Assembly (NCBI RefSeq): GCF_055900595.2
Contig: NZ_CM148325.1
Direction: 5' to 3' (one strand)
Length of the DNA: 64,000 nt
The stretch's first letter is position 1. Each line of letters opens with the position of its first letter. Shown here piece by piece: positions 3,876 to 45,497 of the stretch. The notes below the pieces were generated by a model. It did not search any database, was not told the origin of the DNA, and worked only from the letters and a program-made list of their open reading frames with translations. The position numbers and the translations under genes are program-made.

Positions 3876-4018
3876 GAAACGGGAAAGCCCCTCCCGAGGA
3901 AGGGGCCTTAAATAAGGAAAGGGTCATGATGAAGTGGATCATCATCGTGGTGCTCTTAGTCGTTAGCTACCCAGCTTACTAAGACTACCAGGGCGGGGGA
4001 AACCCCGCTCAACCCTCA
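3876..4018 (-). ncRNA. sib: Sib-family antisense sRNA (antitoxin), copy 1; ends approximate
   Basis: Reverse-strand promoter: -35 TTGACA (4053..4048), 17-bp spacer, -10 TATTTT (4030..4025). Fully antisense to ibs copy 1. Hairpin 3887..3907 plus U-rich tract on the minus strand is the candidate terminator. Confidence 0.6.
3926..3982 (+). CDS. ibs: Ibs-family type I toxin peptide, copy 1 (MMKWIIIVVLLVVSYPAY)
   Basis: 18-codon hydrophobic ORF with ATGATG start and RBS-like aggaaagg upstream, inside the first 328-bp tandem repeat. Matches Ibs toxin family features. Confidence 0.75.
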   Translation: MMKWIIIVVLLVVSYPAY

Positions 4019-4203
4019 CTCCTGAAAATATGCCTTCACGGTCAGAATGTCAATCCGCAGGCTTTGCAGTCTGCGATCCTGCCAGCAAATATTCTTTGCG
4101 AGTCGTTACGCAATAATCACAGATGAAACTATTTTATCTACGCGTTAGCGATAGACTGCATTCAGGGCAAAAGGAGGTAGGCCGACGATTTCAGCGGGAC
4201 GCT

Positions 4204-4346
4204 GAAACGGGAAAGCCCCTCCCGAGGAAGGGGCCTTAAATAAGGAAAGGGTCATGATGAAGCTACTCATCATCGTGGTGCTCTTAGTCATTAGCTTACC
4301 GGCTTACTAAGACTACCAGGGCGGGGGAAACCCCGCTCTACCCTCA
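4204..4346 (-). ncRNA. sib: Sib-family antisense sRNA, copy 2; ends approximate
   Basis: Reverse-strand -35 TTGACA at 4381..4376 with -10 TACTTT at 4358..4353 (17-bp spacer). Antisense to ibs copy 2. Confidence 0.55.
4254..4310 (+). CDS. ibs: Ibs-family type I toxin peptide, copy 2 (MMKLLIIVVLLVISLPAY)
   Basis: Same architecture as copy 1, displaced exactly 328 bp. Confidence 0.75.
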   Translation: MMKLLIIVVLLVISLPAY

Positions 4347-4531
4347 CTCCTGAAAGTATGCTTTCACAATCAGATTGTCAATCCGCAGGCTTTGTAGTCT
4401 GCGATCCTGCCAGCAAATATTCTTTGCGAGACGTTACGCAATAATCACATGTGAAACTATTTTATCTGCAAGTTAGCGATAGACTGCTTGCATGGCGAAA
4501 GGAGGTAGGCCGCCGATTTCAGCGGGACGCT

Positions 4532-4675
4532 GAAACGGGAAAGCCCCTCCCGAGGAAGGGGCCTTAAATAAGGAAAGGGTCATGATGAAGCTACTCATCA
4601 TCGTGGTGCTCTTAGTTATTAGCTGGCCAGCTTACTAAGACTACCAGGGCGGGGGGAAACCCCGCTCTACCCTCA
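4532..4675 (-). ncRNA. sib: Sib-family antisense sRNA, copy 3; ends approximate
   Basis: Reverse-strand -35 TTGACA at 4710..4705; weaker -10 (TAACTT). Antisense to ibs copy 3. Confidence 0.5.
4582..4638 (+). CDS. ibs: Ibs-family type I toxin peptide, copy 3 (MMKLLIIVVLLVISWPAY)
   Basis: Third repeat unit, 328 bp after copy 2; same start context. Confidence 0.75.
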   Translation: MMKLLIIVVLLVISWPAY

Positions 4676-4856
4676 CTCCTGAAGTTATGTTACTCCACCC
4701 TTATTGTCAATCTGTAAGTCCACGTTCTTGCGGGGCGAATAGCAAAACCCTCTGCGCTTATGGGCCGAATTCTGAAAGTTGCTTTGCCTGCTCTTATTTC
4801 ATTGTTGCAGTCGGTATGATACCGGACCTCAATAATTCTCTAAGAAAGGATTTCTT

Positions 4857-11302: not shown

Positions 11303-11390
11303 GCCGGATGCGGTGCGAGCGCCTTATCCGGCCTGGGGAATGAGCGATTTGTAGGCATGATAAGACGCGTTAGCGTCGCATCAGGCAATG
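11303..11390. repeat. REP (palindromic unit) pair between alkA and yegE
   Basis: gccggatgcgg... and gcatgataagacgcg...cgtcgcatcaggc REP consensus-like palindromes. Confidence 0.7.
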
Positions 11391-16374: not shown

Positions 16375-18228
16375 ATGAGACGATTTCTGACGACGCTGAT
16401 GATACTCCTGGTCGTGCTGGTGGCCGGGTTATCTGCGTTAGTGTTGCTGGTGAATCCGAATGATTTCCGCGACTATATGGTCAAGCAAGTTGCTGCACGT
16501 AGCGGTTATCAATTGCAGCTCGACGGGCCACTGCGTTGGCACGTCTGGCCGCAACTTAGTATCCTCTCCGGGCGAATGTCTCTCACTGCCCAGGGCGCGA
16601 GCCAGCCACTGGTTCGCGCAGACAACATGCGTCTGGACGTGGCGCTTTTACCACTGCTGAGTCATCAACTGAGCGTTAAGCAGGTGATGCTAAAAGGGGC
16701 AGTGATCCAACTGACGCCGCAGACGGAAGCGGTACGCAGCGAAGATGCCCCGGTTGCACCGCGCGACAATACCTTGCCGGATCTGTCAGACGATCGCGGA
16801 TGGTCGTTTGATATATCCAGTCTTAAGGTGGCGGACAGCGTGCTGGTGTTCCAGCATGAAGATGACGAGCAGGTGACAATCCGTAATATCCGCCTGCAAA
16901 TGGAACAAGATCCCCAACATCGTGGTTCATTTGAGTTCTCCGGGCGGGTTAATCGCGATCAGCGCGATCTCACGATATCCCTTAACGGTACGGTAGATGC
17001 TTCTGATTATCCGCATGATTTAACGGCGGCTATTGAACAAATTAACTGGCAGTTGCAGGGTGCCGATTTACCAAAACAAGGTATTCAGGGGCAGGGGAGT
17101 TTCCAGGCCCAGTGGCAGGAGTCACATAAACGCCTTTCATTTAACCAAATTAGTTTGACCGCCAATGACAGTACGCTGAGCGGGCAAGCACAGGTCACGC
17201 TGACAGAGAAACCGGAATGGCAGCTGAGACTGCAATTCCCGCAACTGAATCTTGACAACCTCATCCCGCTTAAAGAAACAGCGAACGGTGAAAACGGTGC
17301 CGCGCAGCAGGGGCAGAGCCAATCCACGTTGCCGCGCCCGGTCATTTCTTCGCGTATTGATGAACCGGCCTATCAGGGATTGCAAGGCTTTACGGCTGAT
17401 ATTTTGTTGCAGGCCAGTAACGTGCGCTGGCGCGGAATGAATTTTACAGACGTTGCCACGCAAATGACCAACAAGTCGGGTTTGCTGGAAATTACTCAAC
17501 TGCAGGGCAAGCTTAACGGTGGACAGGTTTCACTGCCGGGCACGCTGGATGCAACATCAACAAATCCGCGGATAAACTTCCAGCCACGGCTGGAAAACGT
17601 TGAGATTGGCACCATTCTGAAGGCGTTTAACTATCCGATTTCGTTGACCGGAAAGATGTCACTGGCTGGTGATTTCTCCGGTGCTGACATAGATGCCGAC
17701 GCATTCCGCCACAACTGGCAAGGACAGGCGCATGTCGAAATGACGGACACACGTATGGAAGGGATGAACTTCCAGCAGATGATTCAGCAAGCGGTAGAGC
17801 GTAATGGTGGTGATGTGAAGGCCGCTGAAAACTTCGATAACGTGACGCGTCTTGACCGCTTTACCACCGATTTGACGTTGAAGGATGGCGTTGTGACGTT
17901 AAACGACATGCAAGGTCAATCGCCTGTGCTGGCGCTGACAGGGGAAGGCATGTTGAATTTGGCAGATCAAACCTGCGACACCCAGTTTGATATTCGGGTC
18001 GTGGGTGGCTGGAACGGGGAAAGCAAACTGATTGATTTCCTCAAAGAAACGCCAGTACCGCTGCGGGTTTATGGCAACTGGCAGCAACTTAATTACAGTC
18101 TGCAAGTGGACCAGCTGCTACGCAAACATCTACAGGACGAAGCCAAACGTCGCCTGAATGACTGGGCCGAGCGGAATAAAGATTCCCGCAATGGCAAAGA
18201 TGTGAAGAAGTTGCTGGAGAAGATGTAA
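16375..18228 (+). CDS. asmA: Outer-membrane assembly protein AsmA (617 aa)
   Basis: ATG at 16375; N-terminal TM anchor MRRFLTTLMILLVVLVAG; length and synteny after dcd. Confidence 0.92.
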   Translation: MRRFLTTLMILLVVLVAGLSALVLLVNPNDFRDYMVKQVAARSGYQLQLDGPLRWHVWPQLSILSGRMSLTAQGASQPLVRADNMRLDVALLPLLSHQLSVKQVMLKGAVIQLTPQTEAVRSEDAPVAPRDNTLPDLSDDRGWSFDISSLKVADSVLVFQHEDDEQVTIRNIRLQMEQDPQHRGSFEFSGRVNRDQRDLTISLNGTVDASDYPHDLTAAIEQINWQLQGADLPKQGIQGQGSFQAQWQESHKRLSFNQISLTANDSTLSGQAQVTLTEKPEWQLRLQFPQLNLDNLIPLKETANGENGAAQQGQSQSTLPRPVISSRIDEPAYQGLQGFTADILLQASNVRWRGMNFTDVATQMTNKSGLLEITQLQGKLNGGQVSLPGTLDATSTNPRINFQPRLENVEIGTILKAFNYPISLTGKMSLAGDFSGADIDADAFRHNWQGQAHVEMTDTRMEGMNFQQMIQQAVERNGGDVKAAENFDNVTRLDRFTTDLTLKDGVVTLNDMQGQSPVLALTGEGMLNLADQTCDTQFDIRVVGGWNGESKLIDFLKETPVPLRVYGNWQQLNYSLQVDQLLRKHLQDEAKRRLNDWAERNKDSRNGKDVKKLLEKM

Positions 18229-18249
18229 GTCATCCAGATGATATATGCT

Positions 18250-18286
18250 GTAGGCCTGATAAGACGCGTAAGCGTCGCATCAGGCA
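18250..18286. repeat. REP element downstream of asmA
   Basis: gcctgataagacgcgtaagcgtcgcatcaggc palindrome. Confidence 0.75.
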
Positions 18287-18644
18287 ATCACGTAGATTAC
18301 TTTCAGCAAAGATGAATCATCTGTATAAGTAAGATACTTCAGCGAGGGTGTTGGTCCGGCTGTAAATCGCCGAATCGTTTCCTGTAGGCCGGGGCAGCCC
18401 ACATGGATGTGGGCTGAGGGCGCGTTTTACAGGGATGTTACCTCGCGCCCGTACCCGATAGCCGAAAGGAATAAGATGAGGGGACCGCGCTAGCGGCGAT
18501 TTACCGCCGGGAGCCCGGGTTGCCAGGGTGGTGGCGATTGAGCCACCCTGGCACGTTCACCGGCTTGAGCGTTCCAAAGTAGCGAGGAACATAAAGTGAA
18601 CGGAACAGCCTCTAATGTCACATACTCTCCCGGTTGAATGAAAC

Positions 18645-18682
18645 GCCTGATGCGACGCTTACGCGTCTTATCAGGCCTACAT
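18645..18682. repeat. REP element downstream of yegH (inverted relative to 18250..18286)
   Basis: gcctgatgcgacgcttacgcgtcttatcaggc palindrome. Confidence 0.75.
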
Positions 18683-18686
18683 ACCA

Positions 18687-20270
18687 TCACACCTCGTACT
18701 CCATCTCGCCATCCTTATGCAGCGGAATAATCTGCACCTTCTGCACGCGATGGCTTTCCACCTGCAACGTTTTAAGCAAATAATCCCCCACCTGAACTTC
18801 TTCGCCAGGTTTTGGAATACGCTGTAAATATTCCATCAACAGCCCGGCAATGGTGTGATATTCACGTTTTTCATCCAGCGGCAGCGGCACATATTGCACC
18901 AGATCTTCCAGCGGCATATGACCATTCGCCGTCCAGGAACCGTCGGCATTCTTCTGAATATCATGGCGGGCGTCGATCTCTTCCACTTCGTTCGGTAAGT
19001 TACCGGCAATGGTTTCAGTGACGTCACTTAATGTCACAATCCCTTCCACCGAGCCAAACTCATCCACCACAAAAGCAAAGTGTGTGCGGGCATTACGGAA
19101 CTGCTCCAGGGCAGGTAACAACGGTAAAGTTTCCGGGAACACCAGCGGTTGGCGAATCAACACCCGCAGGTTGAGCGGTTCGCCGCGCAGTGACTGTTGT
19201 AACAGGTCGATAACGTGAACGACACCGAGCAAATCTTCTGCATCATCGCCGTCGGTAACGACCAGACGCGTGTGCTGATTTCGCTCCAGCAGCTGGCGGA
19301 TCTCCTCTTCTGGCGCGTTGAGATCGATATGCTCAATATCGTGGCGCGACGTCATGATGCTGCTGACAGTACGCTGGTTAAGATTAAGTACCCGCTCAAT
19401 CATCCGCCGTTCCTGCGGATTAAAGATCTGCTGGTTACCATGATCCACCAGCATGGACGCGGTTTCGGCATCCAGTTCCGCATCTTCTTTTTGCCCGCTA
19501 AGCAGGCGCATTACCGCTTCGGTAGTCCGCTGGCGCAGTGTCTGGTTAGCGGAAAGAAAACGTCGCCGGTTAAAGATAGCCAACTGATTGAGCGCCTCGA
19601 TCATCACCGAGAAACCAATGGCAGCATACAGATAGCCTTTCGGAATGACGAAGCCGAAACCTTCCGCCACCAGGCTAAAGCCAATCATCAACAGGAAACT
19701 TAGGCAGAGTATGACGATGGTCGGGTGACTGTTAACAAATTGCGTTAACGGCTTGCTTGCCATCAGCATCAGGCTGATCGCGATAACAACGGCGGCCATC
19801 ATGACCAGTAAATGGTCGACCATCCCGACGGCAGTAATCACCGAGTCAAGTGAGAAGATGGCGTCCAGTACCACAATTTGCGTCACCACGCCCCAGAACT
19901 TCGCACCTTTGCGTTGCGTGGGGTTATTGCTGTCTTTCCCCTCCAGCCGTTCGTTCAACTCCATCGTGGCTTTGAACAGCAGGAAGAAACCACCAAACAG
20001 CATGATTAAGTCGCGGGCGCTAAAGGTAAACGAGCGGAAGCTGAACAGTGGTTGAGTCAGGGTGACCAGCCAGGAGATTGACGCCAGCAGTAACAGGCGC
20101 ATTAACATTGCCAGCAGCAGCCCGGTAACCCGTGCGCGGTCGCGCTGCTTCGGCGGTAGTTTTTCGGCGAGGATGGCAATAAAGACCAGGTTATCAATGC
20201 CGAGGACCAGTTCGATCACAATCAGCGTGATTAACCCGGCCCAGATAGACGGATCGGCAATCCATTCCAT
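18687..20270 (-). CDS. yegH: TerC-family membrane protein with CBS/CorC domains YegH (527 aa)
   Basis: Track ORF 18687..20336 trimmed to ATG at 20270 ([18 protein letters not shown]...). Confidence 0.88.
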
Positions 20271-20511
20271 AGTAAGTACAAAACCTATTCGTTGTATGAC
20301 AAATGTCACAATTCGATCATGGATAAATCGGGGCAAAAATGCAATGTTGCAGCACTATTTATCTCATATTATTTGAGGTTTATAACCTCACATTATCCCT
20401 GAATTAAAAGTGGTAATAATAAAACATTATTTAAGAAATATCGCATGTGGAGACACTATATTAAATATTGTCAACCTAAAGAAACTCCTAAAAACCATAT
20501 TGAATGACACT

Positions 20512-20710: not shown

Positions 20711-20750
20711 TCAGTGTATTGGTAGCTAAAAAGCCAGGGGCGGTAGCGTG
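20711..20750 (+). promoter_or_regulatory. JUMPStart element with ops site (GGCGGTAGCGTG at 20739..20750) in the wza leader
   Basis: Exact ops motif; cagtg...ggtagc...ggcggtagcgtg arrangement typical of RfaH-dependent polysaccharide operons. Confidence 0.8.
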
Positions 20751-35285: not shown

Positions 35286-35366
35286 GAAACCGCGGTGTAA
35301 ATAACGACAAATATAAAATTGGCCGTTTCGGTCAGGGCCAACTATTGCCTGAAAAAGGGTAACGAC

Positions 35367-39694: not shown

Positions 39695-40172
39695 GCCGGG
39701 TGCAGCGTAAAACGCCTTATCCATCCTACGGTTCTGTGCTCGGGACCTGTAGGCCTGATAAGACGCGTCAGCGTCGCATCAGGCACTGAATGCCGGATGC
39801 GGTGTGAACGCCTTATCCGGCCTACGGTTCAGGGCTTGGATCTTGTAGGCCCGATAAGACGCGCCAGCGTCGCATCAGGCACTGAATGCCGGATGCGGCG
39901 TAAAACGCCTTATCCGGCCTACGGTTCTGTGCTCGGGTCTTGTAGGCCTGATAAGACGCGCCAGCGTCGCATCAGGCACTGAATGCCGGATGCGGCGTGA
40001 ACGCCTTATCCATCCTACGGTTCTGTGCTCGGGACCTGTAGGCCTGATAAGACGCGTCAGCGTCGCATCAGGCACTGAATGCCGGATGCGGCGTGAACGC
40101 CTTATCCGGCCTACGGTTCTGTGCTTGGATCTTGTAGGCCTGATAAGAGGCGTCAGCGTCGCATCAGGCAAA
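39695..40172. repeat. Large BIME array: about five tandem units (period about 94-101 bp) of alternating REP palindromes
   Basis: Repeated gcctgataagacgcg...cgtcgcatcaggc and gccggatgcggcg...gccttatccggcctacgg units between wzxC and wcaK. Confidence 0.85.
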
Positions 40173-45458: not shown

Positions 45459-45497
45459 CAGTGCACTGGTAGCTGTAAAGCCTGGGGCGGTAGCGTG
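45459..45497 (+). promoter_or_regulatory. JUMPStart element with ops site (GGCGGTAGCGTG at 45486..45497) for the O-antigen operon
   Basis: Near-identical to the wza-leader JUMPStart at 20711..20750. Confidence 0.8.

Follow-up and report, generated by a model that had tools for sequence, protein, structure and literature searches.

In a 64,000-nt stretch of Escherichia coli DNA (NCBI RefSeq assembly GCF_055900595.2, contig NZ_CM148325.1; hereafter the window), the convergent genes asmA and yegH are separated by a 458-bp spacer, and this intergenic region is 100% identical to that of strain M160133. Between two repetitive extragenic palindromic (REP) sequences, the spacer holds a GC-rich, highly structured segment. 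The segment is almost certainly an intact, divergent member of the TRIP1 repeat family, at a locus missing from the published catalogue, flanked by REPs and inverted relative to most E. coli. Two K-12 members of this family are also known as replication risk sequences (RRS), whose activity is ascribed to a G-quadruplex (G4). The features of the locus, in window positions, are as follows.

16375–18228, + strand: asmA, converging with yegH
18249–18285, unstranded: left REP, one 37-nt arm of an inverted pair, 20 nt 3′ of the asmA stop; sub-threshold naRNA4/REP match
18280–18402, − strand: short open reading frame (ORF) of 40 aa, overlapping the segment
18286–18351, + strand: 5′ leader, homologous to the Enterobacter-type leader from ~18291 and diverging much faster than the core
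18352–18516, + strand: 5′ domain, TwoAYGGAY-like and of ‘double-Y’ shape, with a long closing helix around nested helices and two hairpins
18395–18416, + strand: hairpin 1, with ACAUGGAUGU at 18401–18410, hexaloop AUGGAU and GGA at 18405–18407
18418–18450, + strand: hairpin 2, with stem GGGCGCG/CGCGCCC, inner UUACAGGGAUGU at 18427–18438, loop AGGGAU and GGA at 18433–18435
18485–18496, + strand: small hairpin CCGC-GCUA-GCGG, adjoining the 3′ strand of the closing helix; helix 10, paired in 99.6% of alignment cells
18490–18690, − strand: short ORF of 66 aa, overlapping the segment
18522–18552, + strand: hairpin 3, with a GC-rich 10-bp stem, reading GCCAGGGTGGTGG; positional homologue of the RRS G4 site GGGGGTGCAGGGGGCGGCGG
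18554–18602, + strand: hairpin 4, with stem CGUUCAC/GUGAACG around a variable insert
18603–18644, + strand: 3′ tail, family-homologous to ~18632 (GUCACAUACUCUCCC versus GCCGUAUGUUCCCCC) and unique beyond
18645–18681, unstranded: right REP, second arm of the inverted pair, 5 nt short of the yegH stop codon; sub-threshold naRNA4 match
18687–20336, − strand: yegH, with its stop codon end at 18687

The two REP arms are 100% complementary over 37 nt, with 359 nt in between. An earlier description of this DNA from its letters and ORFs (the sequence-only reading) had placed oppositely oriented REPs on either side of the segment, and they prove to be a perfect inverted pair; near-identical REPs also occur at window positions 11350, 35240 and 39747–40171. 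That reading had seen no convincing ORF in the segment, and we agree: just the two short − strand ORFs overlap it. Coding for a protein was rejected, as these ORFs are unconserved and single-base indels among family copies break the frames. A scan of the intergenic region revealed no sigma-70-like promoter and no intrinsic terminator, and in particular no terminator between asmA and the element. The Rfam covariance-model scan that had been proposed was run. No Rfam family reaches its gathering score within the segment; the naRNA4 matches are the REPs, and the 5′ domain of the segment gives a sub-threshold match to the TwoAYGGAY motif.

Read as RNA, the + strand folds with a minimum free energy (MFE) of −132.1 kcal/mol, compared with a shuffle mean of −104.6 (z −5.3; 0/200 shuffles equal it), and the − strand with −119.3 kcal/mol (z −5.5). 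As single-stranded DNA (ssDNA), the + strand reaches −75.6 kcal/mol (z −8.4). The strong structure noticed in the sequence is thus confirmed against shuffles for both RNA and ssDNA. The MFE fold consists of two branched domains of the ‘double-Y’ type (GC 0.60). The palindrome cagcccacat-gg-atgtgggctg lies exactly where it had been placed, at 18395–18416, and the stem gggcgcg/cgcgccc was located at 18418–18424 / 18444–18450. The 10-bp stem gccagggtgg/ccaccctggc with its 11-nt loop is present as well, one base away from the position first given, at 18522–18552. A 17-nt long-range pairing (18356–18372 / 18494–18510), overlooked earlier, closes the whole 5′ domain. R1, a covariance model of the enterobacterial 5′ domain, scores 160.8 bits at 18360–18508, and the MFE fold agrees with this domain.

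TRIP1 repeats (Rudd, 1999; Li et al., 2024, PMC10888264) include, in K-12, TRIP1a (915016–915281, between aqpZ and ybjE, or lysO), TRIP1b (downstream of putP, internally deleted) and TRIP1c (2229122–2229394, between yohI, or dusC, and yohG). Li et al. added TRIP1d (alx–sstT) and TRIP1e (copA–ybaP), so that the catalogued loci are aqpZ–ybjE, putP–ycdN, yohI–yohG, alx–sstT and copA–ybaP, where 99% of copies lie; membership requires at least 80% length coverage of a TRIP1 type, and the function is given as unknown (PMC10888264). TRIP1a and TRIP1c are RRS-lysO and RRS-dusC, the ‘replication risk sequences’ of Pham et al. 2023/2024 (PMC10287960, PMC11194060).

By BLASTN, the window element is 85.7% identical to K-12 TRIP1a and 85.2% identical to TRIP1c, in 189-column alignments covering 185 nt of the element. 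The same covariance model gives 160.8 bits for the window copy and 170.6, 170.1 and 169.1 bits for K-12 TRIP1a, TRIP1c and TRIP1d. The asmA–yegH locus is outside the five published TRIP1 loci, and the RRS papers mention neither asmA nor yegH (PMC10287960, PMC11194060). The match spans positions 24–208 of the 266 in TRIP1a, or 70%, and it is because coverage falls under the 80% rule that asmA–yegH, like proX–ygaY, is missing from the catalogue of Li et al.

The sequence-only reading had considered a decayed mobile or repeat element of REPIN type. The segment is a repeat, TRIP1/RRS, and the idea of a formerly mobile element fits, but the REPIN label does not. A degenerate copy of a known repeat family had been named among the outcomes that would refute that reading. 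To the letter, the segment is a copy of a known family; at 160.8 bits, against about 170 for the K-12 copies, it is nevertheless intact and not degenerate. No tie to ERIC, Box C or RSA turned up, the RSA and ERIC consensus sequences never having been aligned. RSA, compared by length and copy number only, does not agree on these two counts: it is 150/151 bp long with 6 copies in K-12, versus 3 places for the element in K-12-derived strains. A Box-C-like sequence flanks Enterobacter-type copies, and none is present in the window.

A BLASTN comparison with E. coli genomes, likewise proposed at the outset, showed the segment to be repeated elsewhere and variable at asmA–yegH. Of 5,426 complete E. 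coli genomes, 5,425 contain matches to its REP-free core, at a median of 3 places and with 1 to 10 copies per genome; other sites are lysO–aqpZ, yohP–dusC, proX–ygaY and alx–sstT. A core at least 95% identical to that of the window occurs in ~1,430 of the 5,426 genomes, and the element is full length in about a quarter of E. coli. The window arrangement is present in 41 genomes, with full-length matches at asmA–yegH only. An exact-pattern scan of one genome per species confined the family to Enterobacteriaceae (Escherichia, Enterobacter, Pluralibacter, Pseudescherichia, Lelliottia, Silvania, Citrobacter, Kluyvera and Leclercia), apart from two TwoAYGGAY RNAs in Lachnospiraceae; the remaining matches were unrelated chance hits. 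Klebsiella copies were found at ~75% identity. An association with phages was rejected, as the six matching viral contigs are chromosomal rpoD–mug flanks of prophage calls. Copies mostly lie 50–130 nt past the stop codon of a co-oriented gene and between convergent genes.

A second uncatalogued TRIP1-like copy, scoring 161.2 bits with R1, was seen downstream of proX in some E. coli (L004 1969–2420 and L240 1449–1900, between proX and the MFS gene ygaY); the K-12 proX site (L118 3126–3316) holds a bacterial interspersed mosaic element (BIME) with two REPs instead.

At asmA–yegH, the element is opposite in orientation or truncated in most E. coli. K-12, AVS0543 and E. coli 042 have its sense strand co-directional with yegH, and the window has it co-directional with asmA; E. 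whittamii, Escherichia sp. E1V33 and E. coli SCPM-O-B-8794 share the window arrangement, including the two REPs. In the K-12 copy (yegH–asmA intergenic region, NC_000913.3 2139486–2139758), a deletion between TACCCAAT and TACCCGAT took the 5′ half with both GGA hairpins. Either orientation relative to both flanking genes exists at three E. coli loci (lysO–aqpZ, yohP–dusC and asmA–yegH). TRIP1a and TRIP1c were already known to occur in both directions, with 1255 of 4703 TRIP1a copies reversed, and Li et al. count these directions without explaining them (PMC10888264). In the two loci compared, yohP–dusC and asmA–yegH, the intergenic flanks are also replaced between orientation alleles, which recombination between copies cannot produce. 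Aligned with the common allele (L003, AVS0543), the window copy has a nearly identical core, and a leader and tail full of mismatches and indels. A simple, recent REP-to-REP flip was therefore rejected as the whole story: leader and tail are inverted together with the core, yet have strongly diverged. The asmA 3′ end suggests that the window allele of asmA–yegH is old or imported. Its last 100 bp together with the left REP (18129–18285) are only 90.5% identical to AVS0543, while the end of yegH is 98% identical; it seems that a divergent allele was brought in, the breakpoint lying within asmA.

Conservation was analysed in an alignment of 65 non-redundant enterobacterial copies with an RNAalifold structure of 57 pairs. 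Compensatory double changes occur in 28 of the 57, with 97.5% of cells paired. Covariation scores 0.274, compared with 0.111 in column shuffles (0/500 reach 0.274) and 0.025–0.07 in slid controls, in which partners were moved by 1–3 columns. Covariation extends to the hairpins: 3 of the 6 modelled stem pairs of hairpin 1 covary (for example, CG in 33 and GC in 32 copies), and compensatory changes are found in 5 of 7 stem pairs of hairpin 3 and in 6 of 7 pairs of hairpin 4 (helix 14; 98.2% of cells paired). There are 66 G-U cells to 27 A-C cells, favouring the window + strand as the folding strand in a test that is biased by the structure having been predicted on that strand. We conclude from these substitution patterns that the fold of the family is under selection.

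The loops are conserved too. Because the initial retrieval pattern had the loops fixed, 93 further unique metagenomic copies were drawn with a 3′-only pattern, independently of the loops. In both hairpin loops, CA, GGA and the next G (CA-N-GGA-Y-G) are kept in 90–92 of these 93 copies, CA and GGA in 91–92, while the base separating CA from GGA varies and the loop closing pair covaries.

A 76-nt insertion is nested in the internal loop of three copies (L078, L080 and L035), among them the E. whittamii asmA–yegH copy. It occupies columns 163–238 of alignment A3 and bears an extra GGA hairpin, GGCCCAGGGATGGGCC or GCCCCAGGGATGGGGC; from its sequence, it could well be a small mobile module of its own that bears the same loop motif.

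The Rfam motif TwoAYGGAY (RF01731) was described by Weinberg et al. (2010) from Clostridia, gamma-proteobacteria and gut metagenomes, with very long P1 stems. The element has two AYGGAY-type loops, AUGGAU and AGGGAU, and a long P1 in its 17-nt closing helix. It matches RF01731 over the full length at 29.1 bits in the window and 30.6–31.5 bits in other copies, all short of the gathering score (43), with an E-value of 0.004 at best, on 431 nt. The E. coli-derived pattern retrieved two Lachnospiraceae loci that Rfam TwoAYGGAY scores at 81.5 (L069) and 75.5 bits (L068). Conversely, R1 finds these loci at 34.6 bits (L068, E = 3.5e-5) and 31.6 bits (L069, E = 1.5e-4) in 169 kb, and they have in common with the enterobacterial element both the GAG that links the hairpins and the CGURCC that follows hairpin 2. 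Because of this pattern retrieval, the reciprocal R1 matches and the common linker and junction, the resemblance is judged to go beyond chance, and the family is taken to be the enterobacterial branch of the TwoAYGGAY motif. In the rows of the published alignment that were available, the gamma-proteobacterial members are multi-copy Psychromonas, in which an AGGGAY loop occurs, and none of six E. coli, Salmonella and Klebsiella accessions appears. The two Lachnospiraceae RNAs (L069 3180–3460 and L068 6410–6690) were seen to be centred in outer inverted repeats of great length, the arms measuring at least 25–45 nt; the ‘very long P1’ of TwoAYGGAY may there be the terminal repeats of a mobile element too.

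TwoAYGGAY was predicted to bind CsrA in the RMfam paper (PMC4333381). For CsrA, systematic ligand evolution through exponential enrichment (SELEX) gave the consensus RUACARGGAUGU with an ANGGAN hexaloop, and one dimer bridges sites 10–63 nt apart (PMC7652899). Both ACAUGGAUGU and UUACAGGGAUGU fit the consensus and the ANGGAN loop, the latter matching at 11 of 12 positions, and their GGAs are 28 nt apart, within the bridging range. In the sstT 5′ leader, a hairpin GCACCAGGGATGTGC lies just upstream of the Shine-Dalgarno sequence AAAGGA (L242 1955–2015; K-12 L243 2384–2444), in what looks, by sequence, like the classic dual CsrA site arrangement.

Relatives in other genera point to past mobility. 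Paralogues within one genome are similar over ~360–430 bp, beyond the core. The Enterobacter-type unit, 425–429 bp long, has CTGAGGGATCCCCAGTAATTT as its left and AAAATTGTGGGGAACCCTCAG as its right end, and 16 of 145 distinct copies carry both. Nine of these 16 are flanked by perfect 9-bp duplications, and two more become perfect after a 1-nt register shift; L111, one of the shifted copies, is located within the loop of AAAAAACCCCTCGTGCGAGGGGTTTT, a terminator-like hairpin. Of the first 13 bases of the left end, 12 agree with the IS10 inside end CTGAGAGATCCCCTCATAATTT. Tn10-bearing plasmids and plasmids such as R100 confirm this IS10 sequence, which lies there at transposase genes of IS10 type (ISVsa5 family). 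IS10 generates 9-bp target duplications. Most duplicated targets are CCC-NNN-GGG loops of Box-C-like hairpins, and part of the duplication signal could reflect this palindrome. The ends indicate that some Enterobacteriaceae copies are cargo of a transposable element of the miniature inverted-repeat type (MITE) with IS10-like ends, which the E. coli copies have lost. In the window there is no CTGAGGGATCCCC-type terminal inverted repeat (TIR) at up to 3 mismatches and no TIR or target-site duplication (TSD); REPs stand at that place.

A plasmid or parent insertion sequence was sought with the 446-bp Enterobacter unit and rejected: the plasmid search yielded core matches only, mostly in very large records resembling mislabelled chromosomes, and no insertion sequence carrying these ends. 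At proX–ygaY and alx–sstT, the site that the element occupies in other strains is taken in K-12 by a BIME or Box-C-like repeat. Clean E. coli insertion boundaries were also rejected, the whole intergenic block being swapped at these two loci so that no empty site or TSD is readable. A human-gut metagenome contig (L121 1551–3323) contains three element copies at a ~654 bp period, alternating with BIME clusters; each copy is preceded by a 2.3-copy BIME-like array with a 116–117 bp period, and the REP cluster and element are tandemly amplified there as a unit.

RRS elements block Pol I, II and IV and give rise to ssDNA gaps of up to 2 kb, and the effect is portable to other sites and orientation-dependent (PMC10287960, PMC11194060). 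At least one RRS is required unless the insH7–insH8 region is amplified; a 2–3x amplification of this region (2,102,912–2,288,976) is the only survival route of the double RRS deletion (PMC11194060). The mapped polymerase-block site is the G4 sequence GGGGGTGCAGGGGGCGGCGG (PMC11194060). This sequence is absent from the window copy, which has no four-run G3 G4 motif. Its G4Hunter maximum is 1.04, as against 1.84 on the G4 site of K-12 TRIP1a/c and TRIP1d; the common asmA–yegH allele, the proX copy and an Enterobacter copy give 1.20, 1.08 and 1.16. At the corresponding place, hairpin 3 has stem variants GGTGG/CCACC, GGCGG/CCGCC, GGAGG/CCTCC and TAAGGGGG/CCCCCTTA. Judging by these variants, what selection maintains at this site is the hairpin, and the G4 belongs to a single subfamily.

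The sense strand of the window element is the asmA coding strand, asmA is co-directional with replication in K-12, and the GC skew of the window + strand is +0.037. Because this skew is positive, we infer that the sense strand is on the lagging-strand template, as at active RRS, the last step resting on synteny. By synteny, asmA–yegH also lies ~90 kb from RRS-dusC (2,229,122), and the RRS pair rule of ~650 kb on either side of dif does not hold for it. A truncated K-12 remnant of the element (L008 3487–3759; L002 1486–1758) was noticed inside insH7–insH8; it is not mentioned in the accessible part of the RRS report (PMC11194060).

Our tentative preference, held with limited confidence, is that the window copy is a CsrA-type RNA module. 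The copy most likely acts as RNA because the fold and the two CA-N-GGA-Y-G loops are kept family-wide and the G4 is not. Since no terminator parts asmA from the element, asmA read-through transcripts would carry it as a 3′ extension, in which the two hairpins could form a matched high-affinity pair for one CsrA dimer. The outcome may be titration of CsrA, or protection or marking of the transcript 3′ end. Transcription, CsrA binding and a physiological effect of the window copy are all inferred. Several observations weigh against an RNA of this kind. Sigma-70 promoters and intrinsic terminators are missing from the intergenic region, and about ten copies, including K-12 TRIP1a, are antisense to both neighbours, orientation to genes being unconserved. 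Covariation and G-U excess fit a sense-strand ssDNA fold just as well as RNA, and the only experimental data on the family are at the DNA level, namely RecA/SSB ssDNA gaps at RRS (PMC10287960, PMC11194060). The 9-bp stem of hairpin 1 is more stable than most SELEX ligands, and a K-12 CsrA table from crosslinking and immunoprecipitation with sequencing (CLIP-seq) has no peak at dusC or ybjE; these negative rows weigh little, given low expression and repeat reads that were possibly discarded.

An inert relic, a former MITE minus its terminal repeats that is tolerated without function between convergent genes, is improbable but far from negligible. The IS10-like TIRs (CTGAGGGATCCCCAGTAATTT) of 16 of the 145 relatives, with nine perfect 9-bp duplications, suit it well, as do the copy number of 1 to 10 per E. 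coli genome, the BIME or Box-C-like repeats at the same intergenic sites in other strains, the tandem arrays of element and BIME, and the K-12 asmA–yegH copy, half deleted and apparently harmless. Against it stand a core far better conserved than its own leader and tail in the two old alleles, the compensatory changes at 28 pairs, and loops that hardly vary between genera or between phyla. Furthermore, K-12 paralogues are conditionally essential (PMC11194060), and the window copy matches the full-length model despite lacking TIR and TSD. An RRS-type DNA obstacle, in which the sense strand folds on the lagging-strand template once unwound by the fork and stalls the polymerase, leaving a transient post-replication gap that loads SSB and RecA, is likewise unlikely to be the role of the window copy. 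K-12 paralogues do act in this way, portably and orientation-dependently (PMC11194060, PMC10287960), and the RRS authors hold that any fast-folding stable structure could. The window sense strand is placed on the same template by the skew and by the asmA coding strand, and as ssDNA it folds as stably as TRIP1a does (−75.6 kcal/mol, z −8.4, versus −83.6, z −7.0). Yet the mapped block site GGGGGTGCAGGGGGCGGCGG is absent (G4Hunter 1.04), and the G4-free complementary strand of RRS, with similar hairpin potential, causes only smaller, differential blocks (PMC11194060). The element is, moreover, opposite or truncated in most E. coli, wild-type K-12 displays only two prominent RecA peaks (PMC10287960), and asmA–yegH, ~90 kb from RRS-dusC, is not symmetric around dif.

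The sequence-only reading had raised a small RNA. An independent small-RNA gene with its own promoter and 3′ end would agree with the strong covarying fold, and copies antisense to both neighbours, such as K-12 TRIP1a, would need a promoter of their own for expression. We consider it very unlikely: neither a sigma-70-like promoter nor an intrinsic terminator is present in the intergenic region, the leader upstream varies more than any other part of the element, no non-coding RNA is annotated at any K-12 locus of the family, and no Rfam family reaches gathering score. Least credible of all is a REPIN, or cargo mobilised by a REP-associated tyrosine transposase (RAYT), with the REPs as functional ends and the core as passenger. 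The REPs do form a perfect 37-nt inverted repeat, the two-REP arrangement is common to the E. whittamii, E1V33 and SCPM-O-B-8794 copies, and REP-REP recombination could account for the inversion. REPIN arms, however, are separated by a short spacer only, and here they are 359 nt apart with an unrelated core between them. The majority allele has one REP and an apparent REP remnant, other E. coli copies of the family have no REPs, the family spreads with other ends in Enterobacter, and the REP-core-REP unit is found at no unrelated locus among the 5,426 genomes.

The family itself is known; what is new is an intact, G4-less, REP-flanked TRIP1/RRS paralogue at an uncatalogued locus. The links of TRIP1/RRS to TwoAYGGAY, to CsrA-type loops and to an IS10-like MITE are not mentioned in the TRIP1 and RRS papers examined. 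RRS were reported in 2023–2024 as conditionally essential chromosome structures with an activity ascribed to the G4, and the window copy, ~90 kb from RRS-dusC, keeps the entire hairpin architecture without it. From Escherichia to Leclercia, and in common with Clostridial TwoAYGGAY, conservation falls on the covarying fold with its two consensus CsrA-type loops and not on the G4. The forms found in natural strains, in both orientations and half deleted, make up an allelic series for telling which feature counts. Should the loops bind CsrA, K-12 itself would carry CsrA ligands that are not annotated; otherwise the ANGGAN hairpins would have some other reader. More speculatively, TRIP1/RRS might be the enterobacterial branch of TwoAYGGAY, a structured module that spans phyla and is carried on MITEs, with ANGGAN hairpins selected for binding by CsrA or another GGA reader and the G4 as a late addition in one lineage, a combination that we think rather doubtful as a whole. 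If true, the asmA–yegH copy would be a natural G4-less, orientation-polymorphic ‘third RRS’ that separates the two activities, and the K-12 remnant within insH7–insH8 might contribute to rescue of the double RRS deletion.

Elsewhere in the window, three tandem Sib RNA genes (3911–4710, − strand) score 136–140 bits; K-12 has two at the corresponding locus, SibA and SibB. A BIME array at 39752–40111 (− strand) gives four naRNA4 matches over the gathering score (71.6–79.7 bits). JUMPstart elements at 20712–20750 and 45459–45497, one of them upstream of wza, and an algC RNA motif at 35313–35362 are all above gathering score.

Among known systems, the element is closest to TRIP1, with which it shares homology, the ‘double-Y’ fold, GC richness, an intergenic position tens of bases from a stop codon and occurrence in both orientations; the same covariance model gives all copies 160–171 bits. 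The window copy differs in its uncatalogued locus, its ~70% coverage of TRIP1a, its REP flanks and its 3′ third (hairpins 3 and 4), which is of the Enterobacter type. With active RRS it has in common a sense strand on the lagging-strand template and a comparably stable ssDNA fold, but it is without a G4, is not symmetric about dif, and is full length in about a quarter of E. coli, the window arrangement being limited to 41 of 5,426 genomes.

TwoAYGGAY RNAs resemble the element in their adjacent AYGGAY-type hairpins, very long P1, loop spacing, GAG linker, CGURCC junction and multiple copies per genome, and matches run both ways between the covariance models; the enterobacterial element differs in scoring 29–31.5 bits, under the threshold of 43, and in its extra 3′ domain (hairpins 3 and 4). 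Like CsrB, CsrC, McaS and the glgC leader, it presents GGA in SELEX-type hexaloops, with two sites that one CsrA dimer could bridge. CsrB has ~18 sites, whereas the element has two or three good candidates; it differs further from CsrA-sequestering RNAs in being without known promoter or regulation, in lying 3′ and intergenic rather than in a leader, and in that its sites are predicted. MITEs and small repeats such as ERIC/IRU, Box C, BIME/REP and Correia are, like the element, dispersed, intergenic and structured, and the element swaps places with BIME and Box-C-like repeats. At ~270–430 bp it is much longer than the small enterobacterial repeats REP (~35 bp), RU-3 (103 bp) and YPAL/RU-2 (~168 bp), as listed in a 2011 review. 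Its Enterobacter-type relatives share IS10-like terminal repeats and 9-bp duplications, whereas the window copy stands apart from MITEs in having a strongly constrained internal structure and no TIR or TSD.

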